Virus record (IMG/VR): IMGVR_UViG_3300034759_000219
Origin: an uncultured virus (IMG/VR IMGVR_UViG_3300034759_000219)
Lineage: Duplodnaviria; Heunggongvirae; Uroviricota; Caudoviricetes
Reading direction: 5' to 3' (one strand)
DNA length: 64,000 nucleotides
A program made the translations under genes and the position numbers. Below the pieces are notes generated by a model, which saw only the letters and a program-made list of their open reading frames with translations, had not been told where the DNA came from and searched no databases. This document shows, piece by piece, positions 11,683 through 64,000 of the stretch; within the stretch, counting starts at the first letter, position 1, and each line of letters opens with the position of its first letter.

Positions 11683-14600
11683 TTGAAATAGGGTGATTTT
11701 AGTAAGGAGCTTATAGAGGAATTCACACAGTTATTGCCATAGGGGTTAAGGCAGGCGGAGTTAGGGCCTGAGCTTTTAGGCGGGCTGAATGCGTACAAAT
11801 AGGTTAAGGAATAGGGGATAGAGGCTGGCGAGCTATTCAAGTCGTATTATGAGATATAGGACGTGGTTTAGCGGTACAAAGAAGCACTAGCTACAGGGTA
11901 GGAGCAGTATGTTACGCCAGGTACATGGAAGCAACTTGGCAAGCGGATAATAGACTAGTACAAGACGGTAGTTCAAGCTGGGCTGATGGACAAGGTAAAG
12001 GACGAGCAGGCGAAGTAGTTTATATCTGGTATGGGCTGGATGGGGGACATACTCTAGTCTGGCAAGTCGTTTAGTGAAGGGCGCGTGCCGCTGTTAGACT
12101 ACACAAACCTACTCATGCTAAAGAAAGGCATGGGTTCTACGGTTGCGACTTACACAAAAGGTATTATGCCCTTGTAGATGTTTTACTACAAAAATGACAA
12201 GACGTTTATTGACTTTATGGGTCACATGTTTTCGCTAGAATAGAACACGATGATCGCTGGGTAGAAGAAAGGTTAGCCACCTGTTTTGGCGTAGATGATG
12301 TAGTAGTTAAGTTAGGAACCTGAGGATTAGTAGCAGATGGCTGAAATTTTTTCTACCATGTTTGGTACGCTCAAGCAGAATACAATTAAAGTCATTTAGG
12401 AGACCTTAGGCTTAGATGAAGCTAGTGTATAGCAACAACTCAGCAATTTAGAGGACATCTTTTTGATACAAGACGAGTTTGAACTAAAAAAGCGGTTACA
12501 GGAACAAACGCTAATTTTGGAGACAGTTGAAAAGCTCACAGGTGCGTCTAGAGAGCTTACGTCTGCTTATTTGCGAAGACCATTTGAAGAATATATGGAC
12601 ACTGGAAAACAAGAATAGAAAAAGCGATTCTTATAGCTTCTACCAGGCTGGTTGATACAATTTAGGCAAGCTGCACAGGGCGCACTAGGCGAGGCTGGCT
12701 TGAAAGAGACTTAGGACCTATACTACAACAAACTTGTACTGAAACTTGGTATGACGCCGTACTTTACTTCAATGTTTTTGTACAGTTCTGCTTCGGATTT
12801 TGCTTCAGATTGGATGAAAAAAGGTAGGGGATTTCCAGTACCAGACTTTGGAGTTGAAACAGACAGCCATTAGCGCTATTACATTGATCTTGTTTCTGAG
12901 CCAAGTCGTGAGGCTAGCTATACTTTCGAAACGGAAGATTACTATAGATCTTTGGAAGAGTTGTCGCAGACTATAGGTCACAAATACGACGTATTTGTAC
13001 GACAGAACTTAGAACTATCTGCGGCGATACAAAAGATTGTAGACAAAGTAGCTGGTACTACAGACAAGGACCTATTAGAGTACTTATCTTACGAACAGTC
13101 TGCAACAGACATGGCTTAGGACATATAGAACCAAGTTACTAGTGGCAAGACTGGCCAGCTTAGGAATTTTGTCCGATAGACATTTAGGGAGGTAAACGTC
13201 CCGCTTGCTGCCAGGCTAAATCAGTTTGGTCTACCTGCTTTGTAGAGTGAACTTGTCATATCGCCGTATATTAAAGGCAAGCTATTAGCTAGGCCCGTGT
13301 TAGAATAGTCACTCATGCGTGGGTCTAAGATACTTGCTTCTACTCAAGACTTTGTTATTAGGTAGGGTAGAAGCAGTCAATAGCTACTCAAATTATCTGC
13401 AAGCGAGCTGATTGCAAAGGGTTAGAACACAGACTTGAGCGCGTTTGAATACAAAAAGGTACTTGCGAACCTACTTGAAAACTACTAGCCATACTAGCGT
13501 TAGGGATACAGGGGTTTAAAGCTTGGAGATTAGTCTAAGATTATAGGCCCCATGAAAAAAGTATATGCATAGTAGGCGGAATTTGCAAAGACACATCCAA
13601 CTCAGGCGGCAGATGTATTAAAGTACGGGCCGTTTAATATAGAACAAGTTCAAAACATAATTCGCTAGTTTGAGTTAGCTTCAATAAGTTATCCAAATAA
13701 GACATAGTACATAGTAGCAAATGTCATAATGAATCCAGAGTATACTAAAGTGCGGTGGACTGAAGAGGAAGAAGCGTATAAAAGGATTGTGTTATAGGTA
13801 CGATAGTAGCTTACAGGCCAGACAGAATATGCGCCGTTTATAAAGCCAGGCACGAACATTGACGAATTCATAAAGCAGATGTTTACTGTAGCTGGGTCAC
13901 TTGAAAACAAAGAAGACATAGCCAAAATGTTTAACCTGCTCGGAATTGAAGTCAAACCAGAATCAATTAGGGATACGACTGGCAAGCATATACGCGATGT
14001 TTTAACGTAGGTGACTGAACTAATAGACTATGATCTATTGAAACAATATACAGGTATAAGCGACATAAAGGTACACTTTGGTGGTATGTTATCTGCCAGG
14101 ATAGCTGGTGCATAGTCTTTGGATAGGATTGCGATATAGTCGCCAAACAGGATAGGCAGTATGATCGCATTTAAGCGTGCAGGGCAAGAATTCTCGCCTT
14201 TGAAATATTTTCTACAAGCAGGTGGTGAGCTTGATGAATACAAAAGGACTATTGGATCTAACCTTGTAGAAGCTGCAGACATCACCATATTGCCCAAAGC
14301 TGGAGCTGAAAGCTTAGCTGAGTTCTTGAAGAACTTTCAAACTGCATAGTTTATAGATTTGAGTAGACTGGACAAAGACATCGATATAGGTTTTGGAACA
14401 TAGTAGCAAGAACTGCAACGAATACCAACCATATTCCCTGCGCTTATGATGTCTGAAGAAGACCTAAAAAAGCTACTTTCAAAAGTAAACGAAATTACAG
14501 GTAATGTACCATACAGCTTTGCTGGTGATTAGATACTTTCTACAAAATCCGCACGAAGTGTCTTGGGTTATGTATAGATGACACAAAAGGGGCAAAGGGT

Positions 14601-16551
14601 ACTCAGACTTCCAAAATAGTACAAACTCACAGGTTTTGGGCGCGAAAAAGGTATGGTTAGAGAACTGCCATTTGAGCTATATGCCGTCTTAACTACATAG
14701 GAAGGCAAGGAAATTCAAGTGCCGATATTGTACATGTTAGGTTCTCAGCGGTCTAGATTAAATAAATTCACAGTTCAAGCGCTTGGGTCTATAGGTTAGC
14801 AGAAATTCTTAGGCTACAACGTACCAGAATGGACTGGTACTCCACAGCAGGACATATAGGAGTTTCTCAAGCAGGCACTGTTAGCAGGTCCGAATTTGAG
14901 ACCAAAGAAGCTCATAGTAAAAGCCGGCAAGGAATTTGAAATCACAGATGTAAACTAGTTGTTTATAGCACACAGGGCGGTTATAAACCTGTCTCAAGAT
15001 TTCAGTTCATCCTTGTCTCCAACACGCCAGATATAGTTGCAGTCACAACTTACAGGTCTGTTGTCTGGATATACTGGGCTGTTTACCACACCGTATCCAA
15101 TAGGCACAACCGGCCGTGTTGCGGATTTGTTGCAACAGACTAGAACACTCGCGGAGCTAATTAGATCGAAGAAGTCATTTAAGTTTGGCTATTACGCTAT
15201 ACCGACTTTAGGCTTGGAAAAAGCTGGAGATTAGTCGCTCTAGGATATAGACGAAGCTAGATAGTTTGAATAGTACAAGCGCGCTGTAAACGAAGTTTTG
15301 ATAAAAGAAGGCAAAGCACTGCCAGAGCAAAAGCAAGACATCCTGAAATAGACCATAGCTGTGTCTGAAATACTGCGACGTGCGTCTTAGACTGAGTACG
15401 TTAAGAAGCAAGGTAGGTTTATTACACTTGAAGAGTTGAAATCCGTGGAGTATTAGGAATAGTTGTTTAAACAAATACAGCGTACAGGTGGCATAAAGAT
15501 ATACATAGGCCAAACTAAAGCTGGCGAATGGCTAACAATGGAACTGTCTGATATCTTCTTCCGATCCGACATAGGCGAAGGGCAAAGACTTGTCCTGTCT
15601 GATGTTGGTAATAAGCTAAGAAAATATTTCATAGGCGTCGGATAGTATCTTACAGGCAAAGGCTACCAAAGATTGTACGCACAACTTTTCAACTTACAAG
15701 CCTAGATGTCCAGCCAATTAGCAAGGCAATATTTCAAAAAGAGCGGGCTTTATGTGGTTGGTAGGTTCTCTACACTGGCCGATTACACAGACGAGGCACT
15801 TAAAGCTATGGAAGGTCAATAGGCAAAAGACGTAGCAAGTCTTATGTATGCAAAAGGTTAGTAGATGCCATAGGCTAGGATGAGACAACTCATGTCACTT
15901 ATTAAGAGTACATTGGCTGAATATAAGACAAAGAATATTTCCAAAGAAAAGCTAACTATGTAGCTTACATACGCATAGCAAGTGCGATATATCAGGGCAG
16001 AAGGTAGTAAACTAATAGTCGAGGTGCCTGAATTGGCAAAAGAAGCAGTTGCAGAGGAAGAAATCATTAAATCTGTGAAAGAACTACTTGAAGGCGAAGT
16101 CGAGGTACAATATGTACCTTGGGAACGCTCACTTGAAACTGCCTTACAAGCACTAACTGAGATACAACCAAGGAAAGGCTTTGGTGTCGCAAGGGCAGGT
16201 AAAGCAAGCGCATTTTAGTTTATGACCAGAGAGCCTCAGCTTACATATAGACCGCTAGTTAGAATCTAGTACATAGACGAGTCTGAGTACATAGGTGTAC
16301 CTTAGAAAATAGCTTAGCTTATGGGTGGAGACGATGACTAGGACATAGTCTCGCAATTACCAAGCGTGTTCATAGACAATGACGTGTTAAGGTAGAAATA
16401 GTAGACCAATCCTAGATTAGCATAGATTCTCACACAAGGCTAGATAGACATCCCAACGTCTCAAGCTATATTTTAGAGCATGTACGCACGTGGTAAAATA
16501 GGCGACGAGTTCATGTAGCAACTCAAATCGCTATTCAGACGAGGGGGATGA
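11683..16551 (+). CDS. Large TAG-recoded RNA-polymerase-like protein (1622 aa), candidate virion RNAP
   Basis: All plus-strand track fragments (14161, 15037, 15463, 15982) share one frame and are separated by TAG. Contains GFGREKGMV and TREPQL...MGGDDD*DIV (16321-16350), paralleling 5086..7491. Ends in TGA. Confidence 0.65.
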
Positions 16552-16907
16552 TACCAATACACCTTGGCCGACATGTAATATGCGACTTATATGGCTGTAA
16601 CCAGCTTGTCTTAGATGACTAGCAAGTTATAGAAGATATATTGGTTGAAGCGTAGAAAATAGCCAAAGCTAATATTCTAAACGTATACACACGCAAATTT
16701 TCGCCTCAAGGTGTAACTGTTGTACTCTAGATCTCCGAGTCGCATATAACAATTCACACCTGGCCTGAGTATGAGTACTAGTAGGTTGATATCTTCACAT
16801 GCGGTTCGAGTGATATTGAAAGTTAGCTGTTGTATATTATTGAAAAACTATCTTAGAAAAGGTATACAGTTAGTCTGTTGAATAGAGGTGCTATTGGTGA
16901 GTAGTGA
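16548..16907 (+). CDS. speD: S-adenosylmethionine decarboxylase proenzyme, TAG-recoded
   Basis: LGRHVICDLYGC...VEA*KIAKA...[34 protein letters not shown]...EKLS*KRY...NRG. Confidence 0.93.
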
Positions 16908-17487
16908 AATTGTTCCAAAACTTGGGTTTATTGAATATCTTCCTGAGACTGTAGATGTGTCCGATTCACACCAACTTGCCAAAATAGACAAAGTACTTGC
17001 CAAGTTCAACAAAGGCTCGTTGTACACTGTGGTACTCACATGCCGTGGGTTGAAAAAATGCCCATATTAGGCTGATTGCCCTGTACAAGAACATGTGGAC
17101 AAGATAATTGGCAATAAGTGCCCGCTTGAGAGGTAGCAATAGGAAAAATGGTTTGATGAATACTGCAATGCGTTCAATGTTGGTACAGACCGTGTCAAGA
17201 TGCAAGATATACAGCAACTGGTTTAGCTCGATTTACAAATAATGCGCGCAAATTAGATAATCTCAAACGAAGGCTTTGAACAGGTGTAGATCATAAAAGA
17301 CGAAGAAGGCGAGATGTTCGAAAAGCGACTTCACAATGTCGCATTATTACTTGACAAACTCGAGACAAGGCGTATAAAGCTTTTACGGACCTTAGACAGA
17401 CCTGTAAAGTAGACAACTTAGTCAGATCCAAGTAGCTATATTGCAATATTGAAGAAAAAGTACACCACAGACAATTACGAGGGGTGA
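16897..17487 (+). CDS. Cys-rich protein, possible terminase small subunit, TAG-recoded
   Basis: C..CPY*ADCP..CPLE; open to TGA; lies upstream of the large terminase. Confidence 0.5.
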
Positions 17488-17494
17488 ATAATAC

Positions 17495-17833
17495 ATGGCT
17501 GCAGTTGCAAAGTAGGGAGCAGCTTCTTAGTAGAAATAGCGCAATTTCTGGGTATCGCTTTTGAAAGGTACGCTTAGGTTTCTTGGCGTAGGAGATGAGT
17601 ATATACAGAAGGGCGTCAAGGGCGTATAGGGCTGGTTTGCAGGTGCAACCATCAAAAAAGGTGACAAGTTCGTATACACAGGCGCATAGGGTAAGTTATT
17701 TACAAGATACGGTGGCATAGGCTTGAGAATTGGCTAGATATATGCAGGTATCAAGTTGCCATTTTGGCTTGTAGGTCTGCCTTTTAAAGCTGGAGACGGG
17801 CTAGTCGACTACTCTAGGAGGCGTGTTGTGTGA
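17495..17833 (+). CDS. Hypothetical protein, TAG-recoded
   Basis: ATG to TGA with internal TAGs; hydrophobic C-terminal half. Confidence 0.6.
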
Positions 17834-18654
17834 ACAATGAAGAAACAAGCCAGCCAAATTTGGCATTAACTGCAGTTTCGTTGCCATTGAGATTTTTTGG
17901 ATATTTTCTAAAAGAAAAGGCATATATAAGCATATAGACAGCGCCATAGTTTGGGCTGTTTGACCAATTTAACCCACTTGGTTCACGGGGCTTAAGGCTT
18001 GCATAGTGGTCTCAAAGGCGTGCACTTGAAGCAGGAAAGCCAAGGAGCATAATTACAAGTGCAATACATGGTATAAACAGGCTTACATTTGACCCAAAAT
18101 TTTCTAAAGCTGTTTAGAACCAGATGAAGTTAAGAAAACTTGTTAAAGGCTACATCAAAGGTGGTAAAGACGTAACTAACCTGTTTGATATTGGTGTACT
18201 ACGGTTTTCAGATTAGCTTAAAAGCTATTTTAAGGTATCAGATGAGGTGCTTAAAAAAGCTACAGGCACAAATGTCATACTAAAACAATTTTTTGTAGCA
18301 CCAGCTCGCGGATTTAGAGTTTAGACATAGCCAATGTACCATATTGGAAAACTGTTTTAGTAGTATGAACTATAGAGTTTCTATGGGTTTTTAGGCCAAC
18401 TTGCGATTGGCCTTGGTACGTAGGTATATCATGGATTTAAGAACCTTGGTGTGAGGTACAAGTATCTACAGTACCAAAGACACGTGTAGTCTAACGCGAT
18501 GCGGCTTTCAACTGTAGGCAGGCAGAATGTGACGGCAGAAGAGCAGATGTACCTACAATAGTAGTTTGTCTAGCTTGGCAATGTGACAAATGAATAGTAG
18601 ATGTTGCGTGAAAACCCGTATTAGAACTATTACTATATGGGAGTGAATTCATGA
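17830..18654 (+). CDS. Hypothetical protein, TAG-recoded
   Basis: GTGA and ATGA coupling at its two ends. Confidence 0.6.
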
Positions 18655-20324
18655 AAAGCAAAGACTAGCAAAAGGCAAAAGTGATTGCCAAGATAGACTA
18701 CGAACCGTGTGAAATATGCTAGAAATGCATCTTAACCCACGTCTTCGATAAAGGCTTGAAGTTTGATATACAATGTAAGCCGATAAGTGCACAGGAGTAT
18801 GACAAGCTTATCAACGAATCGAATGAGCTTGTTAAGATAGCTAGATTTGCACCGTAGTTTGTAGAGTATGTATTGAATTTACAGCCTAGGGGCTTTCAAC
18901 ACGAATAGCTTGTATGCAATTCCAAGCGTAAAGTACTGAGACTACCAAGAAAAGCAGGTAAGACATGGCTTATGGCTATGCATATACTATACGAAGCGTT
19001 TACAAACGAACACTACAGAATACTCGTAGCTGGTCCGAGGCAAAACCATATAGCTGAAATCTTTGACAGGTTAAATGATTTTGTATCCAGCTCGGAAATT
19101 TTGCAAGAATCTGTTGTAAGACAATCTAACACATTTGGCAAATTTTACAAATCCAATCCATTTGAGCTGAGGTTCAAAAATGGCTCAATTGTAAAAGGCT
19201 TCACAGCTGGATAGGACGCAGATGCTGTGTCTATACGTGGTCAATCTGCAGATTTTATAGTTTTAGACGAGCTAGATTACATGCTTCCAAGCCAAGTAGA
19301 CAGTATAATTGCCATATTGAACACGAACAAAAACTCGAAGCTTATATAGTAGTCTACACCATCTGGACGCAGAGATCACTTTTACAAATGGTGTAACTAG
19401 CCACACTTTAAAGAATTTCACCTGAAATACCAAGAGCTTGAGATATACGATGAGCGACAAGATAAGGAATACCAAAACTCAATGTCCTAGGACAGGTATT
19501 AGCGTGAAGTCTTAGCAGAGTTCATAAGCCAAGAGTCTGGTGTGTATAGGAACGAACTTATAGACCAATAGCTAGACGAATACAACTTTGACGGCTTAAA
19601 CGCAATTCAAGGCTGTAGGTACTAGATTGGTGTAGATTGGAATGAAAGTAATGCAGGTGTGTATGTCGTTGTAGCTAGACTTGAGTATACGCCAGACGCA
19701 GATTACAAAGTGCGTATAAGCAATATCATTCATATACCACCACATGAATTTACACAGGTAAAAGCTGTAGAGTAGATAGCAAAGTAGTGTAACTAGTACA
19801 AGCCTGATTATTTAATACCAGACGAAGGGTTTGGAAATATGCAAATACAAGTCTTAAAACAGATGTAGGATGCAGGTTAGATACCTATTATGCAAGACAG
19901 AATTGTACCTGTAAATTTTGGTTAGAACATACTTGTCTTTGATTAGATAACCAAACACAGGCAAGAGACAAAGTAGAAGCCGTTCTTGGTTTCTAATTCG
20001 GTTAGAATGCTAGAAAATGGCAAGTTGATACTACCTGCGTCTGAAGATACACCAGATAAGTTAGTTGGCATAATGCGGTCCTACCAGTTTATAGGTGTTA
20101 CAGAGAATGGCATACCAAAATACACAAAAGGCAACACACACGTACTTGAATAGATGCTTTTATAGCTTTACGGCATATATCTTACGCTCAATTCACAACC
20201 TTTAGCTACTATTCCAACCTTTTCTGCTCCAACTGGCGTATACATTTCAAGACCTGTAGGATACGAACCAACCAAGAATCGGTACTTTGAAAGGCGAGGT
20301 GTACGGTCTTGGAAGAGATTTTGA
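18651..20324 (+). CDS. terL: Terminase large subunit, TAG-recoded
   Basis: PRKAGKT (Walker A), IRGQSADFIVLDELD (Walker B), LI**STPSG, REVLAEF, IGVDW, HVLE*MLL*L. Confidence 0.9.
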
Positions 20325-22210
20325 ATTACAAGCGCGAATACAAGAGCCATGACCAAGTAGAAACAGAAATTTAGACAGTTGAAGACGTGGCTAGTTCTAT
20401 AGAACAAACCGCGCAAGAGTACTATGGTAGAGCTAAATAGGTTGTAGACACATAGAGATAGGTAAGAGCCAGCTTATTCAAGTCCATGAAACAATTTGGT
20501 GTACCTGTATAGCCGTCAAGGACAGATGTACAACATTAGATAAAAGTACTCAGACAGGCAGGTGGCAGAACGAGTACAGACTTGACAGACACGTCATTTA
20601 TAGACTTTGATGACTTTGTATACTAGACCGATGTGGTACAGTAGACTATACCACCGTACGAAGTTATATACTCAGGCATGGAAACTAAGCCAGTTTAGAC
20701 AAGCCAAGGTATAGTGTACACACATCGAGATGGACAATAGCCTATTCAAATCACCCCGGCTGGCGATATTTAGATGTGCCCGGATGACAAAATTGAACAA
20801 GTTACTATGAGCATTGAATTTGACAAAACACCGTCTAATACAGACAGGTTCAATGACTTATTCAATAAATACCGAGCTAAGAAAGAGTACGCATAGAGTA
20901 CAACTGTCGAGTTTGACAGTAATGTATGTAAAGACTCCATTCAGACTTCGGACCAATTTGTACTCAAATTACTTATGAACAATTTCAGTCAAATAGACTT
21001 AATGTCCGTCTTATCTAAATGGCTCTTATGCCCTATACAGAAGGCTATCAACGATATAGTAGATTAGTGGAATGCGCTTGCGTCTTTTGTAATGCATATA
21101 TTTGTACCTATTTTCAATTAGCACATACACACCACACCAATTGGCCCGACTTCGCCTCCAACTTCTACTGTAACGAACTTTGGTGATGTACCAAGGTGGT
21201 ATAAATTGCCATACGTATGCTTTGTAGAAGAATTTGCATACAAAATAGAATCCGCAAAACGAGCTCAGCTATGTGTTCAGCCGTTTCTGAACAAGACATA
21301 TACCTGTGGTGATATGAGATAGATAACTAAATTTTTAGATAAATACTCAGATAATTTAGCTTTAGAGATAGTTGGCGAACATGAAGACGACCCTAAGGTA
21401 AAAGCAATGCGCGAGAGTGGCTAGTGGAAAAAGATGAGCATGTACAGCGCAGATTAGGCTAATTTTGTACTCTTGAAGGTACATGATACACCAGCTTAGT
21501 TTGTCTCACCTTTAGCTTAGGAGCTTTTTGACCAACTCAGGTACATACTTCAACCTGTTGTGAATATTCCAGATGATGTATTTTTGTTCTGTGGCGATTT
21601 TGCTCAAAGTATGCTAACTGATATATCTAAGCTATCCGAATACGCATCTGCCGTAGACTCATTGTGTGAAAAACTACTTACGTTCTTAAAGCACTGTAAC
21701 TATGGCACAGTTACTAGCGCATTAGTACAAGACATAGCAAATGAATCTGCCTTGGCATTGAAAAAATCCTTTATATCTCAAGCGGACATAACCACATTTG
21801 TACAATTCATACAGAAGAATTAGGCGTGTGTAACGGACTAGTTTTTGCAAGCTATGTAGTATCTTGAACAATAGCTTAAGACAGGTAGCACGTCATATGC
21901 AGACACTATATAGCAGCGCATAAACGAGTAGTTTGTTGTATGTTCTTACACAGACGCAGAATAGATGTTTGAAAATATCAAGACTAGGTCATAGCCTAAG
22001 ACAACTAGCTTCACAAAGCTCATTGAAAAGATATAGGTCTTGTTTGGTGTAGACAAGTCTATATTTTTCAATACAGAGAACAAATTGACATTAGACGTAC
22101 TCAAACGTGCTGCAAGATTCATAAAGGCGTACCGCGATATGAAAAACCAGCTTTATCCATTGAACGGTTCTGGTGCAGTAGATGAGGATGTAATCAAATA
22201 GATGGGATGA
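20309..22210 (+). CDS. Hypothetical protein, TAG-recoded
   Basis: Continuous frame including track fragment 21560; ends in TGA. Confidence 0.65.
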
Positions 22211-22214
22211 GAGT

Positions 22215-51841: not shown

Positions 51842-54334
51842 ATGGCTGATCCTAGAGAGCAATAGCTAAGCCAGCTTGCACAGGATATAGCATAGATCAA
51901 TCCAACTGTAAGAAAAATCGGCCAACTGTTCCCAGAAAAATACTAGAAGTTCATAGACTTTTCTAAGCCTGTAACTATCGCTATTAAGCTTGGGCCGAAA
52001 GAATACGATGAGTTGTAGCAATATATGCTGTCCAACCAGGGAAGTATTAGGAACATAATGCAGTTTCTCTCAGAAAGGCAGATCCCGTACTAGTCTGTAC
52101 TGTACCATTATGGCACAACAAAAGGCAAGCCATAGAACCTAGTCTCCGCAAAAGGTATATTTTGGAATGAGTTCGTCTTCAGACGTGTAGAGTAGCGACC
52201 TGACCTGATACCTGGTTAGACAGCTGGATTGTGGTTTGCATAGTATCCAGCACAGCGCCCGAATGCACCTGCTGTTGTCTAGGATAGGCCTATAAACCTA
52301 CTGATATACAAAACTGAAGCCCAGCCTCAACTCAATTAGACTGCAGAAGAGCTGGCTGTATACAAGTCAATATCAACCGAGCAGGTAGGTACAAGCACAG
52401 CAAAGCAAGCTTCACGTGCTGGCACAGGTAAAACCTAGCAAGCTACAGGCAAAGCTAAGACCACATCTGAAACATAGCAACAGTTTGTGCAGCCAACTAA
52501 GCTTAAAAAGCCATACCAAGTCTTAGCCCAATAGTTTAAACAATAGAACACAGCCGAACAGTTAAAGATACAATTTGGTACATCTGGTTTAAGATACATA
52601 CCATAGACGGTAGGCACAAAACAAGCTATTGTGTTCAAACCAGACTTTGGCGTGACAAACCTGAAAAAAATGAAATTGTACGCATTGCCTCATGCCTTTA
52701 CTATTGGCGACATAATAGGCAGACAGCGCCAACCTGAAATAGAGCAACTTGTAGATTTTTTGAATAAGAACGTACTTGGTTTAGCTGAAACTGGATAGCA
52801 ACTTGCAAATCAGCCAGTTGGGCTTGAGTAGATCTACAAATAGCAACCAGAATTCTTCACTCAACTAAAGGCATACAGTGGTCTGATACATGACTTGTAC
52901 ACGTAGACATTAGACGAAAGAATGTACGTGCTCAGTCAGCTATAGGAAGGCAAAACTGATATCGGAATAAAAAACGAAGGTGTAGCAGGTAGGGTTCGTG
53001 CATAGCTTGACTTTCTTACACGTACAAGACCTGAAGATACCGAGCTTGCTAACCTTAATGAATAGTTCTTGATACAAGCAGGAAAGCGCATTGAGACAGT
53101 TGATGAACTTGGTGAGTAGCTCAAAAGTGGAGCTGTAATATTCTAGCCCGCCGTATCGAGAAAGTATCTTGCTGCTATTTCACGGCTGCAACAGGAATAG
53201 GGAGATAAGATCACGGAACAGCAGATAACTGAGATTGTGAGCCGTGCGTGGTTACTGAATGCTGGAAAGAGTTACCAAGCTAAAGTTATCGAAAGTGAAA
53301 TTAGTAGTAGGTTAATTTAGCTTGGCGTAGATGAAAGACTATAGCGTAACTTTGCAACACAGATGTAGGATATAGACTATCCACCAGATTTGTTTGTTGT
53401 ATCAGATGTGAAAAAGTAGATCACAATCCAGGATGAGGCTAAACAATAGTACATCATCAAATAGGGGCAACGTGCATATGTCGTAACAGACACAGGACAC
53501 GAATCGTACGTAATCTAGGGCTATGGCGAGTCTATACCTACAGATGTAGAAGAGTTAACGGATATAGAACAAGCGCCTGGTGAGACAATACGAGTATATC
53601 CAACTTCCGAGGAAGATAAATACATAGAAATTGAAGCACAAACTAAGACTATACAACAAGAGGCATTGGAACAACAGGCTACACAACAATAGTCTACACA
53701 ACAACAAGCTCAAGAGTAGCAAGCTGTACAGGAAGTTCAACAAGAGACAGCTGAACAAGCTGCAGACCAAGGTAAAGTAGAACAAGACTTGGCAGATGCA
53801 AAGTAGTAGCAAGCACAGGATAATGCATAGCAAGCATAGCAAGAGCAAATGGAACAGTCTCAACAAATCCAGGATTAGGCAAATGCTACAGCTCAAGCGC
53901 AATCTACTGGTGCTGAGTCTGGATGTAAGTCTTAGCGTGAAGCTGTAGAAGAGATTGTTGAAGAGACTACAGAAAAAGAAGCTGGTGAGGAAACAAGTTC
54001 TATAATTGGCAACTTTCTCAAGCGCCTACAACAGGCATTATTTGGCTCACCTAAGCGTACAATTACGACATTAGCTGTACTTGGTGGTGTTACGGCTATA
54101 TAGATAACCGGGTAGGCACAGCGTAAAAAGGTAAGACGCGATATAAAAGACCAGATTGCAAAGCAACAAATGGCATCTCAATATACAATGCCCAACATGC
54201 GCTATACTCCATCAGCTGTTAAAGTACAAGCTAATGTATACAGCCATTATTACGACCAAGAATTGTAGCAGATAAACGCATAGATGAATTCATTTGGTCC
54301 TTCGGAAATTGTAGTCAACAGATATAAGCGCTAA
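51842..54334 (+). CDS. Large virion protein with Q/E/A-rich tract, TAG-recoded
   Basis: GAGGTG RBS; open to TAA; transmembrane-like segment near the C-terminus. Confidence 0.6.
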
Positions 54335-54350
54335 TGGTTAGTCTCTGTTG

Positions 54351-57300
54351 ATGACCGATATTGATAAAATAACCATTTAGTGTCCATCCATAAGCAAAAT
54401 AGGAGATAAATACTACGCGCAGGACGATTAGCTTGTAATAGGCTAGTGCCTTGCGCCATCTGGGCCTGTCCAAATAGGCGTGATGTCTATAAGTCACGCT
54501 AATGTCACGCCAGTACCTAAATAGCGTGCAAATTAGGTTTCAGATACAGGCAGAATTGAGCTTCAACTTACAATTGAGTTGGTATATCCGTAGGAATTGG
54601 CCTTCGGATAGGACATGTAGGTATACAAAACTGGCAGTGTGTTCATGTCACTGGAATAGTTACTTAGACAGATTGAACTCACACCGTTTATTCCAATATA
54701 CAACAGCGATATATCGAGACTCATTTCAGATGGTCTTTAGGACTACGTATGGTTTGCAGTTCAATCGGTTAGAGTACAGAGTATACAAGAATAGCCTGGT
54801 TCTGTATAGATACAATTACAGCTACTCAAGACCAGTGTAGAACAGCTTGCTGGCGGAATTGTAATGTTCAAAGACACACTTGATGGCAAGGTGTATACGA
54901 TAAAAGGCAGGATGTACGAGTCAGAGTACATAAAAAATATAATTAAAGACATGCTTTCAGACGAGAAAGAACTGCCTAAGAATGATGTACTGTCTATAGA
55001 CTGGAATGAAGTGATAAACACAATTAAGTCACGTGTACAATAGCAATTTTCCGTATTACAGACACTAGCGCCAACCGAAGGCAAACAGTAGATTGCGGAT
55101 ATATGGAATAACTACCAACAATAGACATAGACGATAGAAAAAACTGTAAAAGAGATCGGCTAGTAGTACGACATGGGCACTGTTATTGAGTTTGAAGCTT
55201 AGTACCAAAATTACCTATAGCCGCACTCGCTTATATCTAAGCCAAACTTATTTCACCAATATCTCGGCTCTACTGGCTGGCAAGTACGTGTACAAACTGT
55301 ATGCAATAACTATGACAATATAAGCAAGATGCAACGATTTAGAGAAGCAGTTGGCGAGCTTGTTATTGTTGCTAATGACTTGATCTACAATGTGCCAGTC
55401 AGGCTACACTCAAGAATATAGAATTTGTTAAATATGCAAATACCGTTTTTGACAACTGTAGATGTATCAAGTGTAGATGATTAGGTCAATTCGTACATAG
55501 TCACGATGCAACTTTTGGATACAACTAAGCTGTACGAACTAGAAAAACTCATAGATGTGTCAATGAACGCATAGCAAAACTTATTGACTAAGAGTCAGAA
55601 GAACCGCGAGTATTTGTTTGAAGACCTGTCTATTCCAACCGTAGACACAAGTCAAAGCAGGCTTAGTGATATATAGAACGTAGTTGGTACACCAACTAAG
55701 CAAGAACTTGATTAGCTTTTAGATAAATACATGCGTGCTATTGCACGGCTTACGAACGAAAAACTCGCTACAATTTAGCTTGCAGGCTAGTTGCTTGACC
55801 TGTCATTGTTTGATAATACCGAGTACTTTAAGCCAAACATGTTAGCCACAGCATAGACACGATATGCGGTGTTACACAGGAAATTGAAACAATCGTACGA
55901 TACAAAAACCGTTGAAGCTGTGGTTTCACAATTAGAAAAAAGAGACTAGATAGATAGAATCGCAATGTAGGCTGTAGTAGCTGTAGAACTCGGGTGTTGT
56001 AGAACTACGCCTGCAGATTTGCACGCTCTCTCAGATGGTGATATTACAGCCTAGTCGTTTTCTGCATAGGTATAGCACATGTATTCAATTCGAGACTAGA
56101 TTGGCACTTCAACATTTGACGGAATATTTTCGTATACATTGAGGTCTGACTTATAGCAAATAGTACGTGACCTAGCCGTCCAATCTCGAGATGAACTAAC
56201 AAGTAGAGAAAACGATTCTACAATACTTGGCGGCGTCGGCTAGATAATAAGGCGGTCTACAGACAGCTCGTCGCTATTGAAATATATAAAAGACAAGATG
56301 GTCATCTATCATAGTATTTCTCAGGACCAACTCAATATAGGTCTCAATATAGGTGGCGCTCCAGGTGGCAGTCGCACATCTTCAGATATGCCATCACAGC
56401 AAAATTTGTATCACTAGTAGTACTGCTGTTACTCGAAACTTGTCGATTAGGTCTAGTCTGATGTTTAGAATTAGTACTATGTCACCGTACTTATGGTAGA
56501 TGATGTAGACTCATTGCAGACATTACCAAAGTTATCCAGATTTGGCAGGTGGCTAGATGGTTAGGTTCACTTCATTTCGTGTCTCATAGAGATGCTACTG
56601 CAATTCTCTACGGATGAAATCCAGTAGCTATTGCAGAGTGTAGGCATAGATGTTAAATAGTACAGTACTATACCATTTTAGTTGGACTACAGCTTAAGTG
56701 ATATATTCACAGTTGCACATCCAGACAGGTTCACTTGGATATATGACCTAATCGAAAAATAGCTAAATATGCATAATACAGTCAAGCAGGCTATACGTAC
56801 CAGCTTCCCAGGTAAGATAGATGAGATATTAAGTCAAACTAGAGAGCTTAGAAGCGCAAAAGCACTATAGCTCATGGACTTTGAACAAGGTGGCAGTATA
56901 ATAAACGAAGTTATACAACAAAAGTACTTGAATGAGCCTGTTGCGACAGATATAGACACAGTTGCAAATGTACCTGTAGATGTCGACTTGGAAAAATTCA
57001 ACAATTGGCTTGAGACGGTAAAAGGCTATGACTTTGATACATAGCAAAATAAGCTTGGTATCCAACCTGTCCTAAATGAGCTCAACCAATCACTGGCAAT
57101 TGGTAGTTCAGCAATGATGTTCAAAAACGTCCTTGCAATAAACTCCGCAGATTATTCAAGTTCGATATTATTCGAGTAGATGTACAACCTGTTGACAACT
57201 TCGTATGATATAGACTATCTGACACCAAACGCTCAGGTCTTGTTCATATACAGGCATGATATATAGCCAATATTCTATCCGCAATCGACTTAGGTAATCA

Positions 57301-59702
57301 CATACAATTCTATATAGCAACTTAGCATAGTCAAGCAAAAAGACAATCCTGTACATGTCGCAGATTTACTGCTTACAAACATGACTGGTGTAATAGACCC
57401 AGCTAATATATAGCTTGCTGTGTACGGAAAGACAGATTAGGTACCAAATTCAATTTAGAGGCTGTTCATAACAACTGGTGTCGAAATAGCTATACGACTT
57501 GGCTATGGCAGAAATATATCTCGCATGCCAATTGTATTCCAAGGCTTTATCTAGGCAGTGCAATAGACAAACAATGCGGTGCATATAATTGCAGAAGGAT
57601 ATGGCGCATTATTAACAAGGTAGATCTTTGAAAAGCGAAAGCGAATTGGTGGCTTGGCATCTAACCCAATTGAGCTTGTATACTAGGCACTTAATAAGAC
57701 TCAAGCTACACAATTCGGGCTAAAGGGCTTAATTGAGAACGTTGTAGCGAATGTCATGCAATTGAAATTAGACGATATGCTAGCTACGTCTTATGTAAAT
57801 AAGCGCCTCCTACCGTTATTAAGAACGACAGATTAGGTTGTGAACATATACTAGCCTACCGAGTACTATAATGGATATGGCAAGAGCTCGTACGGTGTAT
57901 TCAAGAACTTTGAGACTTACTTTTGCGAATACAATGCGAAACCTGGTGATTCATAGTGGAAGCTTATACAAGACTAGGTAGACATGATGCCAGGTTATAT
58001 AACTGGCTTTGTAGACTATGGTATAGGCCAGCAACGTGTGTTCTTTGGCAGACCGTTTGACCCTGCTAAGTTCACACCTACACCATTTACAGAACAGCAA
58101 TTAAGCCAGCTTCAGAAGTCTGTCGAGTCAGTGTCTTAGCTTGAATTGCAAGACATAAAAGAGACAATTAAGCGTATACTTACAGAATGCAAAGAACTGC
58201 CTTTATTACCTGGTACACGCGAATATTCAGAACAAGAAAAGCTTGAGATTGCACATTGGTTTGAGGACTAGCTAACTCGCATGAAAAACGAGTACAATTT
58301 CGCATCCCAAATCTTGGCTCAGTTTAAGAACAGTGAACTTGAGTCTGTCTTAGAGCAGTTAAACCCCAAAAACATACCGTTTTTCAGTTGGGATGTGAAT
58401 GAACCAAGTAAGTTACGGATCATAGACATGCTCAGAGAGTCTGCATAGGATTACACAAAGTAGTACCTATTCTAGGAGTATGTATATTAGCTTAGGAAGA
58501 TACAAGAATTTGCAGATTGCTACAAAGATAAGCTATTAGCCTCAACACGAGCATAGCAGATAATAGAAAATACCACAATCTAGATAGACCAAACAGCTAG
58601 GTCGGCTACTGAGTATGCACTATTCACACGACTTTCCAAGTCTGCACAGTATAGGGATATATACAATCGAGCTATAATTTTAGGTACAAAACCGTATTAG
58701 AGTATAGTACCTGTATCTAGCGAAATAAATCTTATAGACAACTCCATAACTTTAACTACACGCGATATCGCAAATGAAGTAATTTTGTATTCGCCACCGT
58801 TCTTCCAAGATTGGTTCTTCTTAATTAGATTTGGATAGTGGATAGCAAATGCGCTGTCTGGATTCCAGGGTATAACAAAATACAATGGCAAGAACTACAC
58901 TGTGACTACGATTACAGTAGATGACGATATACCAGATGAATACAAAATTCAAAAGGTGGAAATTGTAGACTACGCAGAAGTGCTACAACAAAAAGTACTG
59001 GTTGGGACATCTAAACTCATGAAGCACCTACAAACCATGTACGATGGCAATTTGACAATGCTTGGGTACCAGCTTTTGAAACCGCACGATAGGATTGTGC
59101 TAAATGACTCTGTAAATAACATGTAGGGCTGGTAGGTTGTTAGAGATGTCATACACAGGTACGATTAGCAAGTTGGATTTATAACACAGTTCAGTATAGA
59201 ACCTGAGATTGAAGTGCGAGATTTGCATGTGTCATCTCTGAAATAGCTTCTAACACGTACAATAATGGTTGCTACTGGCTTGTTACCTGTCATAGTCTGG
59301 GTATTCAGTGCGCCAATTGGGTAGGTTGTAACTGCATTTTAGCTTTCAATGAGCTTACAGCCGTTATTCAGTTCGTTACTTTAGAAGTACGTGCCAATTA
59401 GTCCATCGTTCAAAGCTGTAGATTCCGAATCGTCTTCATAGCAGATTTCACTTTCGCGAGTTGTAAATCCTATCTTTGTAAAGCCTATAGTGAAGTCGGG
59501 CATAATATACAGTGCTGGGCTGGAAGGTTCAAAATTTAACGAATAGGCAATTGGAGTATCTGGCTTGATAAACGATGCAAGAACAGGTATCAAGTACTTT
59601 ACAGAAGGGCTCAAATAGTTCGGCTAGTAGTTCCAAGAAGGGCTTGCTATCTTAGAAGGTTAGATAGACATCGCACTCAAAGACCTGGAGAGTGGTATGT
59701 GA
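54351..59702 (+). CDS. Baseplate hub-like large protein (about 1783 aa), TAG-recoded
   Basis: IRLGYG...VFQGFI and MYDGNLTMLG...KPHDRIVLND...VRDVIHRYD...GFIT (hub-type pattern); ends in TGA. Confidence 0.65.
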
Positions 59703-59935
59703 TGTTTGTTAAATCGTACGATGTTATGTCACTTGATATGCGCAGAGGTGTGGTAGAGATACAAGTTGAAAACGGTGAAGTTATCGAATATCCGTTTCAG
59801 TTTATTGGCATCAAAAACACAAAAATAAGCTAGAGTGATGTCTCGGCTATGGTAATTGGCGAAGACAGGGTAAATGCAGTTGCAATCTTGTTCCCCAAGC
59901 ATAAGCTTGTGACAAAACAGATTGAGCAGGGGTGA
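59702..59935 (+). CDS. Small baseplate-region protein, TAG-recoded
   Basis: TGATG-coupled to the preceding gene. Confidence 0.5.
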
Positions 59936-59939
59936 GCAT

Positions 59940-60293
59940 GTGGAGAATATCCTAAAACAGGTAGTTTAGTCTCTTGAGGAGTCTTAGCTGAAAAAGACAT
60001 TCGAATCTGTTGTAATAGACACCATGAAAGGTGACAATTAGTTTATAAGGATACTTGGCAGTCAAATAGACATACATGGCACAAATGAAAACCATATCCG
60101 ACTCGATGGCGAGACACAAGTTAGAGGCTAGCTCAGGTTTTTAGGTAGCCCAGATTAGTTAAAATTTGGTGCATTACACCAGATGTCGGGTTAGACTTTG
60201 TCCTTTGTACCGTCTACTGGTATATCGCCATTGCCAGTATTATAGCCACACAATCCAATTTAGCCAATTGTTTAGCTTATAAATGGTTTGTGA
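59940..60293 (+). CDS. Baseplate-region protein, TAG-recoded
   Basis: GTG to TGA with TAGs. Confidence 0.5.
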
Positions 60294-60302
60294 GGTGCAA
60301 AT

Positions 60303-60719
60303 ATGCGCGATATAAAGATTTCAAATGGTGACATAGTCTTCAATGAAGCGGATTTTGCAAGTGCAGATAACTATTAGTAGGTTTAGAATGTAGTGCGAAA
60401 TATAATTTTCACACGGCGTGGATCTATGAAACAAAACACTACATTTGGCTCAGATTTATTACATAACAAAGCGATTTCTGAGCTGTAGGTGCGCTCTATT
60501 GATGACATTGCGTCTTATATAAAAGAAGACATGATGTACTCAATTTGGCTCACTAATCCAGGCTTGTATAAATTACTAAAGTGTGAGTATACCATAGACG
60601 AGGAAAACAAGACCATATACTGGCAGTTTTATATACAAGACAGCAGTGTCTTTGTACCATTGATGCTAGATGTCGGTACTGTACAGACGCAAATCGGTAT
60701 AAAGTTAGTCTTCAAATGA
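60303..60719 (+). CDS. gp25/gpW-like baseplate wedge protein, TAG-recoded
   Basis: MRDIKISNGDIV...IFTRRGS...FGSDL. Confidence 0.7.
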
Positions 60720-60728
60720 GGTGTTTTT

Positions 60729-61871
60729 ATGTTTGAATCTAAATCACTAAGCAGGATGATAAGCGATGTCGTAACAAGTATAGTATCAAAAACAAACATA
60801 GAGTCTGTAGAACCTGGTACAGTGCTTAGGTAGCTTATAGACTAGCAGGCATTGCAGGTATACGAATTACAAAGGTTTGTGTAGCTTTTGGCTTCATCTA
60901 CCTTTTTAACAGAATAGTCAGGTCCATTTTTGGATACGATTGCGACAATTTTTGGCTTAGCACGTCAGCCTTAGACAGTCGTCTAGTCTGTTGGTGGGAT
61001 AAGGTTCTATACAGAAACTGGGGATTAGATTTGTAACTACATTAGTGATAGCTTCTTCAGTGAAAACCAGGTTATTGTGTATGACAAGTATGGCGGGTAG
61101 TATAACGTAGAACGCACCTAGATACCATAGTACAAGATGTCACACCAATATGTCACATTAAACTAGACACCGATAGAAATAGCGAGAGAATCTATTTCGG
61201 CTGGCGAGATAAATTAGTACACACCTACAATACCAGGTGTGTTGGTTACTAATACATCAAACCTACAACTTGTACAAAGCGCAGAAACAGATTCATAGCT
61301 TAGATACAGAATATAGTAGCATCTAAATAGCTATAGAATGGCTACGTCTTAGTAGCTTAGGCTATAGTAGATGTCCGTACCTGGTGTCTAGGATTAGCGT
61401 GTTATTGAATTCCCACGTGGTATTGGATCTGTGGACGTGTACATACTTGGGCTTGACATAAATACGGATGAATAGCTAATTCAACCTGTCTTGGAGTAGG
61501 TCAAGCCGTATGTTTAGGCTGGCATAGACCTAGATGTGAAGACATTTATAAAGACATACGTCATACTCGGCGGTATTGTAAGATAGGTTTAGAATGCCAA
61601 TCAATAGAACGTATTAGACCAAATAGAGTCAGTTTAGCGGTCTGCGATAGACATAATCCAGCCTGGTGGTACAATGAACAAATTCGACTTATTGAGCCAA
61701 ATAATTCGCAGTTGCGATCTTATCAAGACCATAGACGATTTTGCGGTTTATATAAAGTAGCCATCGAAATTTTAGGTGCCTAATAAGTTGTATTAGGACA
61801 CCTATTATTGCTCTGAAAAGGAAAAGTTACTCTTAGCGCCCACAGACTGGCAGGTGTTTAAGATATTATGA
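60729..61871 (+). CDS. Baseplate J-like protein, TAG-recoded
   Basis: E*SGPFLD...FGLAR...ETDS*LRYRI...ATS**LRL**MSVPGV*D*RV...GIGSVDVYI. Confidence 0.85.
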
Positions 61872-63925
61872 GACCAATCTTTGTCAAATATGACGGCCAG
61901 ACACTGTCGTGGTTACATACCGCGCCATAGCCGTACACTGTATATGTACGCAAATTTAAAGAGACTGCGTACAAGGTATTTGCTCAGACAGATCAAAATT
62001 CAATACCATTTAGCGATCTAGATGTCTAGATACAAATTAGACCAGTTGGCACATAGCCAAACTTTGAACAAGGCGATGATTACTACATATTTTCACAAGA
62101 CAGAATACATACATCTCCAAACCTGTCGCTTTCCTTTCTAATGGACATATTCAGAAACTAGCTACCTGAATAGATTACAAAGCGGTTTTCAGATGTATCA
62201 AATGTCACACAACTTGCAGATTAGCTGTCCTAGCCTGGCGATTTTATAGCATTATCACTTCAGCGTGTATTTGCCGAGCGAAGTAAACTTGCCAGGATAG
62301 AGTTTAAACCTGCTAATAATTAGTACATAAAGTATGCTGGCAAATTTGATAACATATTCGCATTTGAGTATTCGCATTTGTTCAACACTGTAAGAGCTGT
62401 CAGACTTGTGTATAATCAAGCTCCAACATTTCCTGATTCATACGTACCTGTGGTTGTTACAGACCTAAACATAGCGGATATATTCAGCACGAACGTGGTA
62501 CATGAGCAAATAGAACGTGGCATAATCTTTGAAGACAACTCAAAATGTTCCGTCCAATTTGATATGAACGCTTGCAAGCTGAACGTCATCTCACAGCTTA
62601 CAGGTAGTGTTATATAGGACATGTCGTTTCCAGATGTACGCGAGCCTGGTGGATTTGAATTCGATTGGCACTATATATATATCTTGGACAACCATCTTAA
62701 GGTCATGCCGTAGCTTTACGATTACTAGGAGCTAGACTATGCGTATTTCGATTATTCTGGTCCATTTAAGCGCTTATTTATCTACCACATGCCAGAATAC
62801 CAGACTTAGTACATGACACCAGTTGCAGAAATAAGAGTTGATGTACCACCAGAATGGAATATCGTGTAGATAAAGATGTTCAGTGGATAGATGCTATAGC
62901 TACTTGAAGATGGCAGAGTTTAGATACTGTAGCCAAAATACTATTCATACTACAGTGCTGGCAGCAGTATAACAATCAATGACACGTTTTAGCAGGTATA
63001 GTTTTATAACAGCCAAACCAACAATTCAGTTATGTAGAGACTGAGAAAATTCAAAAAGTTACCAACAACCCTTGATGACTTGTTATACCTGTACGGTATG
63101 CACAGGTCTGAAGCTGAAGAGCCAGCTCGGTAGCTGTACAGGTTGTTTGTGGATATGCGCAACAACTAGCATGTGAACCAAACAATGATTAACCAAATCC
63201 TGCCAAATTAGTACTACCAAGTTACAAGCTTGAATGAGTTAGAATTAGAATATGGCAGTGACCTTATAGACCAGCTTGTCCAGATAGGCCAGCTACGTAC
63301 ATAGCCTACATTCAGTACATAGCAATTTGATACATCTGACATAGCAACCAAACCTGCATTATAGCTTAAGAAGACGCGATATGATACTGGAGTATATGAA
63401 AACGCAGTTACTTCTATAGTCGACGCGATCCAGCGGCCTGTCATTATAAACAATGCCAACCCGATATAGGCTCTCAACTGTGAGTATATGTTTGTGAACG
63501 AGACTAGATAGTAGCTACAGGTTAACAGTACAGATTGGCACGTGTTTAAACCTGGCAAGGTATGTATACAAGTATAGCCTTCTTAGTTGCAAAGTATAAT
63601 ACACCTTACCGAGCTTGATGCCTAGCTCGTATCGTCTAGCTTGTATGGAAAGAAGATTGTGCTATAGAGGTATCCATACGAACGAATACAAGTAGGCGAC
63701 AAATACTTCAACGGCATAGGCCTAATAAATGGCATGTACTAGTATTAGGTAGACAATACCGAGCTTGCCAAACCGCAAGTGTACTTTTATGGCGTTTGTG
63801 GGAATGAGCAATATCCACTAACTGCGTTTTCTGTAGACCAAGTTGCATATTAGTACATCTATGAAACAATTTAGCTTTCAATGCCATTAGAACAGTTTTA
63901 TCTAGTCAAGGTGGTGGGTTCGTGA
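61868..63925 (+). CDS. Baseplate-region protein, TAG-recoded
   Basis: ATGA-coupled; includes fragment 62378; ends in TGA. Confidence 0.6.
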
Positions 63926-64000
63926 AAGATATAGACCTGTTAAAGTAGAACAGGACTGTAACGTACATAACATAGTAGCACGTAGCTAACTATGTAACTG
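63922..64000 (+). CDS. Start of the next recoded gene (truncated by the window)
   Basis: GTGA coupling; MKDIDLLK*NRTV... Confidence 0.4.

Follow-up and report, generated by a model that had tools for sequence, protein, structure and literature searches.

TAG appears to be read as alanine in the late genes of an uncultured tailed phage that encodes an alanine-type tRNA(CUA)

Introduction

What does TAG stand for in the late genes of the uncultured virus (Caudoviricetes) represented by the IMG/VR record IMGVR_UViG_3300034759_000219? The stretch of 64,000 nucleotides analysed here, referred to as the window, belongs to a tailed phage and comprises most of its late region and part of its early region. 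Its late genes are interrupted by several hundred in-frame TAG codons. A first-pass annotation, made from the letters of the sequence, had proposed that these codons stand for alanine and that the phage uses an undescribed genetic code. We find that both the homolog columns at TAG and the identity elements of a tRNA(CUA) encoded by the phage support alanine, and we estimate at roughly 0.9 the probability that the late genes are read in this way by means of that tRNA.

Results

TAG behaves as a sense codon in the late genes

With translation table 11, 41 open reading frames (ORFs) of at least 100 amino acids are called on the 64 kb, and past 11.7 kb the plus strand carries fragments, the capsid gene being its sole long gene. 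When TAG is treated as a residue, these fragments give way to a continuous head-to-tail series of plus-strand genes running from 11677 to 63925. The 36 late genes taken from it are densely packed, many with stop/start overlaps of four bases (ATGA/GTGA type). They contain 701 in-frame TAGs in 15,915 codons (4.40%) and terminate with TGA (30 genes) or TAA (6 genes), never with TAG. TAG alone breaks the frames; TAA and TGA never do. The description of the late genes in the first-pass annotation, as broken by TAG and closing in TAA or TGA with tight coupling, is thus borne out. With TAG masked as X, searches of Pfam and PHROGs name SpeD, the large terminase, portal, capsid, SLT, PhoH, sheath, tube-like paralogs and baseplate J, and the matches extend across the TAGs. 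The three longest recoded ORFs (1624, 1765 and 1802 amino acids; Table 1) carry 87, 94 and 89 TAGs, respectively.

The share of TAG per gene is uneven, from 0 to 8%, with 8.2% in baseplate J. Two late genes (36450-36869 and 41522-41989) have no TAG, and the major capsid gene (27036-28265) has a single one in 408 codons, yet GCN makes up 8.6% of its codons. Judging from this scarcity in the capsid gene, a suppressor-dependent codon is likely to be avoided by heavily expressed genes.

A set of 15 genes is written in the standard code; the minus-strand islands (28.9-33.4 kb) account for five of them and 641-11056 for the other ten. All but one of these (14/15) are without in-frame TAG, the exception being 33006-33410 with three, and three of the 15 use TAG as their stop codon, compared with none of the 36 late genes. 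It therefore seems that the genome changes code between early and late genes, the former, mostly on the minus strand, being in standard code and the latter TAG-recoded. The restriction of the recoding to the late and structural block, as originally claimed, holds in these counts.

Codon composition was compared between the two sets. Alanine codons (GCN) account for 5.37% of the codons in late genes and 7.17% in standard-code genes, GCG and GCC being about two to three times rarer in the late genes, which contain 701 TAG against 854 GCN. Counting TAG with GCN gives 9.8% alanine; counting it with the glutamine codons would give 9.1% glutamine. If TAG encodes alanine, it is the commonest alanine codon of the late genes, with 45% of all alanines. 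Avoidance of the GC step was considered and rejected as a cause, GC dinucleotide rho being 1.26 and GCN still supplying 5.4% of the codons. The base following TAG is distributed much as after other NNG codons, so that TAG acts like a sense codon. A TAG-specific context at position +4 was considered and rejected: C follows TAG in 28.6% of cases, as against 16% over all codons, and it follows other NNG codons in 26% (p=0.02).

The TAGs are real and in frame, and are not assembly errors. Sixteen public runs from four studies, one of which may be the source of the window, contain 86% or more of the words sampled from 33900-37400; the other three studies include digester and mixed-culture samples, and no run of RNA is listed. 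Contigs of those three other studies span this region whole, at depths of 11-52, with seven substitutions and one inserted base. None of these changes touches the 42 in-frame TAGs of the region, all of which are kept. In a further run (X17), 17 of 30 bins were covered at low depth.

The homolog columns at TAG are alanine columns

The TAG sites singled out in the first-pass annotation all lie at the positions given there. In SpeD (16779-16784), YEYXXVDIF (X denoting TAG) aligns with YGYAAIDLF in PDB 1tlu, and in PhoH, GKTFLXLXVXA (34757-34771) and DEXQN (35057) align with GKTYLAMAKAV and DEAQN in PDB 3b85. The X of SGFXRGLMQ in SLT (32071) is opposite the A of the gASGLMQ stretch in SLT70 (1sly), and the X of ESXWN is opposite the alanine of ESAWN in the same protein. 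The baseplate J motif LRLXXMSVPGVXDX and the openings MAEIDY and MXNIDY of the tube paralogs are likewise present. TAG thus falls on alanine columns at the named motif sites, but V, T, P, G or L is found opposite other TAGs of the same alignments, and a tally over all columns was therefore required.

For this tally, homologs were aligned to the proteins with TAG masked as X, and the log-odds per residue were summed over the TAG columns (in nats); an identical sum for each sense codon served as a control. The PhoH set consisted of 108 homologs (P0013-P0120), with the entry of the window phage itself (P0001) and 11 relatives suspected of recoding left out. For baseplate J, 146 of 150 matches were retained after removal of rows shorter than 250 amino acids or with at least 7% glutamine, and for the terminase 95 of 114 homologs after removal of rows with at least 5% glutamine. 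Over the 74 TAG columns of these three families alanine scored +7.2, serine −55.5, threonine −57.4 and glutamine −121.9, and 41 of 42 sense codons (n≥10) were assigned correctly.

A further, independent set came from tblastn searches of 45 IMG/VR loci that use the standard code; it covers portal, protease-like, small-terminase-like, capsid and other proteins, with terminase and PhoH excluded, and its alignments contain two stops overall. Its 37 TAG columns gave −7.0 for alanine, −35.3 for serine, −46.5 for threonine and −76.3 for glutamine, with all 36 controls correct. Taken together, the two sets comprise 111 TAG columns drawn from nine or more protein families and yielded +0.2 for alanine, −90.8 for serine, −103.9 for threonine, −188 for lysine and −198.2 for glutamine (controls 53/55). 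HMMER profile emissions over the 74 columns of PhoH, baseplate J and terminase resulted in +31.9 for alanine, +13.9 for serine, +13.7 for threonine and −10.2 for glutamine (controls 43/46). Even with no homologs dropped, hence including relatives translated with TAG as Q, alanine stood at +9.9 and glutamine at −22.7. In the raw IMG/VR tally, 387 of about 2,260 aligned residues are alanine and 36 are glutamine. The column-consensus check proposed with the original claim, carried out here in a Codetta-like form and with HMMER emissions, thus ranks alanine first for TAG, and the homolog columns of TAG are alanine columns.

The tRNA(CUA) carries the acceptor stem of a tRNA-Ala

ARAGORN and Rfam detect two tRNAs in the window, a tRNA-Ser(GCU) and a tRNA(CUA), of which the latter is the only decoder of TAG. 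Its gene sits on the minus strand, within a small island that falls between late blocks 1 and 2, and a hairpin followed by a T-run lies directly 3' of it, so that the tRNA looks like a short transcription unit of its own; no sigma-70-like promoter was found upstream. ARAGORN folds it into a canonical cloverleaf with a 5-nt variable loop, discriminator A73 and an encoded CCA. The acceptor pairs are G1-C72, G2-C71, G3:U70, G4-C69, C5-G68, G6-C67 and G7-C66.

Alanyl-tRNA synthetase (AlaRS) reads the acceptor stem of its tRNA and not the anticodon, and in bacteria A73 and G1:C72/G2:C71 are secondary recognition elements. The tRNA(CUA) possesses both of these together with G3:U70, which is described as the most important element of tRNA-Ala in PMC5389517. 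It departs from the features of tRNA-Ala in the anticodon, CUA in place of NGC; as the anticodon lies outside AlaRS recognition, this has no bearing on charging. Whole-tRNA identity was also tried as an isotype test and was rejected as not discriminating, the top non-suppressor matches being Ser and Thr at 0.71. Hence, the isotype assignment rests on the identity elements and on how the tRNA compares with a tRNA-Ala(UGC). Inspected by eye, the alignment shows identity to the tRNA-Ala(UGC) of another phage at 50 of the 59 positions that lie beyond the anticodon arm, the T arm being identical throughout. The tRNA-Ala(UGC) genes of two compared loci (L095, L132) and of Aeromonas phage Akh-2 display the same set of G3:U70, A73, G1:C72 and G2:C71. 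Among the 48 ARAGORN tRNAs on the compared loci, G3:U70 is seen only in the single tRNA-Ala(UGC), in the Sup-CTA tRNA of an Aeromonas phage and in the window tRNA(CUA), with 0/45 among the others. A search with the tRNA(CUA) against a collection of E. coli genomes returned no match.

In the activated-sludge run X17, an abundant contig of 2.3 kb includes a tRNA-like stretch with 14 differences to window positions 33954-34031. A C-to-T change at anticodon position 34 would make its anticodon UUA, that is, ochre-type.

Alternative readings of TAG

The alternative that survives best, although we consider it improbable, is that TAG stands for serine or threonine, or ambiguously for alanine plus one of these. 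Serine and threonine are the runners-up in every analysis, and TAG columns are less alanine-specific than GCN columns. Moreover, TAG differs from every GCN codon, and CUA from every NGC anticodon, at two or more positions; each TAG-alanine site would consequently have passed through another residue, for example serine (TCG) or glutamate (GAG), and a route through TCG fits serine as runner-up. However, alanine is ahead of serine by 91 nats in the columns and by 18 nats in the profile emissions. The variable loop has five nucleotides, whereas the tRNA-Ser genes compared have a long arm, and the invariant motif sites DEAQN, GKTxLA and YGYAA are alanine.

Glutamine, the reading of translation table 15 that public gene callers assumed, is less probable still. 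The protein database entries of the window PhoH (P0001) and terminase (P0271) show Q at every TAG, glutamine is, in the papers searched, the sole amino acid published for TAG-recoded phages, and CUA is one step from the glutamine anticodon CUG. Against this, glutamine lies 42-198 nats below alanine across the analyses, the largest distance being that over the 111 combined columns, and it is the plurality residue in 0/74 IMG/VR columns with at least three sequences and the commonest in 1/24 PhoH TAG columns. The glutamine columns expected at TAG under table 15 are therefore not seen. Reading TAG as glutamine would bring glutamine to 9.1% and alanine down to 5.4%. Furthermore, the tRNA has G1:C72, G3:U70 and A73 and not the U1:A72 and G73 found in the suppressor of the code-15 phage Phass-1 and in the tRNA-Gln genes of the set.

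The database entries of the phage and its relatives (P0002-P0012, P0121, P0272) were evidently called under table 15. In a terminase of 76% identity, the window TAGs are opposite 'Q' 12 times, A three times, T twice, S once and a gap four times, and window alanines are opposite 'Q' three times. The 11 PhoH relatives (37-44% identity) contain 5-9% 'Q' and 2-5% alanine; they show Q on alanine-consensus columns in 38/221 cases, compared with 17/791 in the 108 ordinary homologs, and DEQQN alternates with DEAQN among them. Searches of viral contigs with the terminase found no close relative, contig searches with the PhoH relative P0004 found none, and those with an alignment of the PhoH clade recovered only ordinary bacterial PhoH loci.

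That there is no code at all, the region being a degenerating prophage, a run of broken genes or a product of misassembly, is hardly credible: it does resemble debris under table 11, but TAG alone interrupts the frames, the 36 ORFs follow one another along the strand with stop coupled to start, Pfam and PHROG families run across the TAGs, the cognate tRNA is encoded and 42/42 TAGs recur in contigs of the three other studies. Pyrrolysine can be dismissed, since 'tRNA-Pyl' is the label that ARAGORN gives here to every tRNA with a CTA anticodon, whereas the tRNA folds as a canonical cloverleaf, unlike the atypical tRNA-Pyl, and its acceptor stem is of the alanine type, Pfam scans of the window detect no family for pyrrolysine synthesis or PylRS, and the TAG columns are alanine, with lysine at −188 nats.

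Several points nevertheless weigh against alanine, or against parts of the picture drawn from it. The whole case is sequence-based. Alanine is the plurality residue in 17/74 IMG/VR columns with at least three sequences and the commonest in 10/24 PhoH TAG columns, the others being mixed, and its score per column is 0.00 for TAG compared with 0.34 for GCA and 0.31 for GCT. The lower score indicates that TAG tends toward less constrained alanine positions where serine and threonine are also present; with these two next after alanine, there may be some ambiguity or a minor second reading at TAG. G3:U70 is not exclusive to alanine, as the tRNA-Trp(CCA) of Aeromonas phage Akh-2 has it together with A1:U72 and G73. 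A CUA anticodon can also draw glutaminyl-tRNA synthetase in E. coli. Pfam scans of the window proteins, which represent part of the genome, revealed no release-factor gene, inhibitor of release factor 1 (RF1) or AlaRS that would account for the read-through of 87-94 TAGs per ORF. The relatives at 37-76% identity would share the TAG pattern, with the database 'Q' of their protein sequences presumed to be TAG. Finally, the G+C content is 0.38 in the first 2 kb, 0.44-0.49 over 2-12 kb and about 0.40 afterwards, and CpG rho is 1.28 to the left of about 11.6 kb and 0.73 to the right. The switch between early and late code holds only if the contig is not chimeric at this junction; the shift near 11.7 kb may reflect either modules of different histories or a mosaic contig.

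Other features of the window

The features are compiled in Table 1. In tblastn searches with the sheath, the nearest cultured phages were Moorella phage MTATph1 and Bacillus phage 0305phi8-36, at about 27% identity. The PHROG family matched by the LAGLIDADG-type gene is labelled HNH endonuclease. At 2132-3205, no homolog and no family were found for the minus-strand frame, which may be a recoded orphan gene or no gene and was left uncalled.

The left end carries a mini CRISPR array (1452-1746) with five repeats of 30 nt and four spacers of 35-37 nt, beside a retron/defence-type reverse transcriptase (3-644, minus strand) and the gene 641-1234 (minus strand). The same repeat occurs 24 times on the IMG/VR contig L130, which also has portal and Terminase_3 genes. 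One L130 spacer equals spacer 2 of the window, and two others match 1047-1083 and 1156-1191 exactly, both within gene 641-1234. The pattern resembles targeting of this phage by a CRISPR system, either phage-borne or of the host. As another phage-borne array targets gene 641-1234, the left end would be DNA of a mobile element and not host chromosome. The repeat also provides a handle on the host.

Table 1. Features of the window (positions in the 64,000-nucleotide stretch)
Feature	Position	Strand	Basis or remark
tRNA(CUA), amber suppressor, alanine-type	33955..34030	-	ARAGORN; Rfam tRNA 63.8 bits
Terminator-like hairpin and T-run	33932..33951	-	8-pair stem, 5 G-C pairs, TTTGTTGTT tail
Late block 1, TAG-recoded, 13 genes	11677..28877	+	
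1624-aa protein, 87 TAG	11677-16551	+	
SpeD/AdoMet decarboxylase	16548-16907	+	Pfam/PHROG
Large terminase	18651-20324	+	Pfam/PHROG
Portal	23686-25128	+	Pfam/PHROG
Capsid, 1 TAG	27036-28265	+	Pfam/PHROG
Two-gene plus-strand stretch	31127..32412	+	TAG-recoded
Gene with 1 TAG	31127-31750	+	
SLT lytic transglycosylase, 10 TAG	31747-32412	+	
Late block 2, TAG-recoded, 21 genes	34127..63925	+	includes a Big_5 protein
PhoH, 24 TAG	34127-35290	+	
Sheath	37424-39103	+	
Tube paralogs	39121-39723, 39756-40415	+	
Giant protein, 1765 aa, 94 TAG	46540-51837	+	
Giant protein, 1802 aa, 89 TAG	54294-59702	+	
Baseplate J, 31 TAG	60729-61871	+	
Last gene of late block 2	61868-63925	+	
Standard-code block, presumed early	3..11056	-	defence-type reverse transcriptase, RNase H, macro-domain protein, 801-aa protein, others
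Standard-code genes with TAG as stop	4625-5074, 5086-7491, 10670-11056	-	
First plus-strand gene, 181 aa, no TAG	11141..11686	+	no family match; overlaps start of recoded operon
Minus-strand islands within the late region	28901..33410	-	adjoin the tRNA
Island genes without TAG	28901-29245, 29242-29550, 32578-32949	-	
LAGLIDADG-type homing endonuclease, no TAG	30050-30490	-	between late blocks; Pfam 7e-6
HExxH-like gene, 3 TAG	33006-33410	-	
tRNA-Ser(GCU)	3278-3369		ARAGORN and Rfam
Frame of 357 codons, open only with 9 TAGs read through	2132-3205	-	between CRISPR array and tRNA-Ser(GCU)

Discussion

A possible mechanism

In the mechanism that we propose, the late genes (packaging, head, tail, baseplate, SpeD, PhoH and SLT lysin) would be written with TAG for alanine. 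The alanine acceptor set of the tRNA(CUA) and the blindness of AlaRS to the anticodon suggest that the host AlaRS should charge it, and the charged tRNA would then insert alanine at UAG. The first TAG lies inside the first 61 codons in 32 of the 36 late genes; late proteins could presumably not be made before the tRNA(CUA) is present, and the tRNA would thereby gate late expression. The demands on decoding would be severe. For the ORF with 94 TAGs, the fraction reaching full length is 0.99^94 = 0.39 if each codon is read with 99% efficiency and 0.95^94 = 0.008 if with 95%, so that read-through would have to be nearly complete and the host RF1 probably outcompeted or disabled. Manipulation of release factors is known in some recoded lineages (e.g. 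a phage RF2); the proteins of the window, which covers part of the genome, gave no hit to a release-factor family in Pfam scans.

As both codon and anticodon are at least two changes from their alanine counterparts, a model of near-cognate tRNA capture is inapplicable, and the origin of the reassignment poses an evolutionary puzzle.

Alanine-type suppressors in other phages

A tRNA closely resembling the window tRNA(CUA) is present in T5-like Aeromonas phages (Akh-2, AhSzq-1, AhSzw-1, TS3 and AhP_Mru1; Shenzhenvirus). Their Sup-CTA tRNA is 81.6% identical over the full length and shares G3:U70 and A73. In Akh-2 (MK318083.1; L129:14060-14131) it is located 220 bp upstream of a tRNA-Ala(UGC), the tops of the two acceptor stems being identical. 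The records of these phages follow standard-code annotation and label the Sup-CTA as TERM, Pyl or OTHER. It also occurs in six further Aeromonas phage records.

A search of IMG/VR for alanine-type CUA tRNAs with a narrow pattern (GGGG start, CUCUAAA loop, CUCCA end) returned nine loci. ARAGORN confirmed a tRNA(CUA) with G3:U70 and A73 in four contigs: an Aeromonas T5-like phage, two contigs from one metagenome and the provirus G001 (135,374 bases, 32% G+C). The two metagenome contigs (L145 and L147, 76 and 102 kb) have it in a tRNA cluster, with the acceptor GGGGAUA/UAUCUCC; of the four ORFs of at least 150 codons listed in their flanks, three are without TAG and one (169 codons) has five. In G001 the suppressor lies between a tRNA-Ala(UGC) and a tmRNA, and many long ORFs contain 5-41 TAGs, with none in the terminase-portal block. 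Its terminase and PhoH match those of the window phage weakly; G001 is otherwise unrelated to it. A fast alignment gave −21.7 for serine and −27.6 for alanine, with controls correct in only 27/34 cases, and profile emissions gave +5.3 for alanine and +2.3 for serine (n=19), with controls at only 19/26. Alanine at TAG in G001 is suggestive, and is to be taken as a lead only.

The occurrence of amber suppressors with G3:U70 in unrelated phages (G001, the Aeromonas T5-like phages and the source of tRNACUA-151, see below) suggests that alanine might be a recurrent target. One may go further and picture an environmental phage clade, represented by no fewer than 11 PhoH clusters (37-44% identity), in which UAG is wholly reassigned to alanine in the late genes with a novel way of silencing or outcompeting RF1, and in which alanine is a recurrent, overlooked target of viral stop capture through the anticodon blindness of AlaRS. 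This wider proposal is tentative, and we would give it somewhat less than an even chance. If it is true, every such genome is currently mistranslated as code 15.

For the phage itself, the consequences would be practical as well. Detectors of TAG recoding assign table 15; if alanine is right, about 4-8% of the residues in public entries are wrong, and such mistranslation degrades homology searches and structure prediction. The presence of 87-94 UAGs per ORF implies very efficient natural suppression, which is of interest to genetic-code engineering, and the similar suppressor of the Aeromonas phages, which are in culture, gives laboratory work a place to start.

Comparison with known recoding systems

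In the full-text literature searched, TAG was not found described as an alanine codon of any phage genome, although papers behind subscription and supplements outside the search may hold more. Term searches of Cook 2024, the Borges preprint, a 2026 jumbo-phage survey and the theta-ribozyme paper brought up no such genome, and the suppressor isotypes predicted in the last are Gln, Trp, Ile and Tyr. The claim of an undescribed code therefore stands at the level of phage genomes. It requires qualification at the level of the tRNA: according to a 2025 preprint (PMC12636597), 29 phage tRNA(CUA) were assayed in E. coli lysate, of which 28 inserted glutamine and one, tRNACUA-151, inserted alanine. 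That preprint speaks of 'an unusual UAG->Ala reassignment' whose 'biological relevance remains unclear'. From a by-eye comparison with the sequence in its supplement, tRNACUA-151 resembles the window tRNA in its acceptor (GGGGNGG/CCNCUCC), G3:U70, A73 and the CUCUAAA anticodon loop, whereas the D and T arms differ. The two cases are complementary. For tRNACUA-151, insertion of alanine was measured and the preprint gives no evidence of usage in a phage genome; for the window phage, usage in the genome is deduced from sequence and charging would follow from the identity elements. The window would thus supply the genome-level case missing from that report. The reading of TAG as alanine is well supported by sequence comparison and would be a new form of phage stop-codon recoding, with one partial experimental precedent.

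Stop-recoded phages with suppressor tRNAs are described that read TAG as Gln (code 15) or TGA as Trp (code 4), among them crAss-like and Lak phages and the phAss-1 group (10.1101/2021.08.26.457843, PMC9523058, PMC10607447). Alanine would add a third amino acid to these natural reassignments of stop codons in phages. Like the code-15 phages, the window phage has many in-frame TAGs, a phage-encoded tRNA(CUA) and no TAG as stop in the recoded block; the recoding resides in late, structural and lysis genes, the rest is standard, and the tRNA island lies between late blocks. Unlike them, it appears to use alanine and not glutamine, with a suppressor built on a tRNA-Ala body that would rely on the anticodon-blind AlaRS. 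CUA and TAG are one mutation from their glutamine counterparts (CUG, CAG) but not from those of alanine (NGC, GCN), and the TAG density, 4.4% of codons, is very high.

UAG has reportedly been described by Hayashi-Ishimaru et al. in 1996 as a sense codon (for alanine or leucine) in chlorophycean mitochondria, and the mention of UAG as alanine in green-algal mitochondria that accompanied the original claim fits that work, which is reference 33 of PMC12636597. In those mitochondria it is a genome-wide code of an organelle, whereas the window phage would be a virus that switches codes within a host using the standard one.

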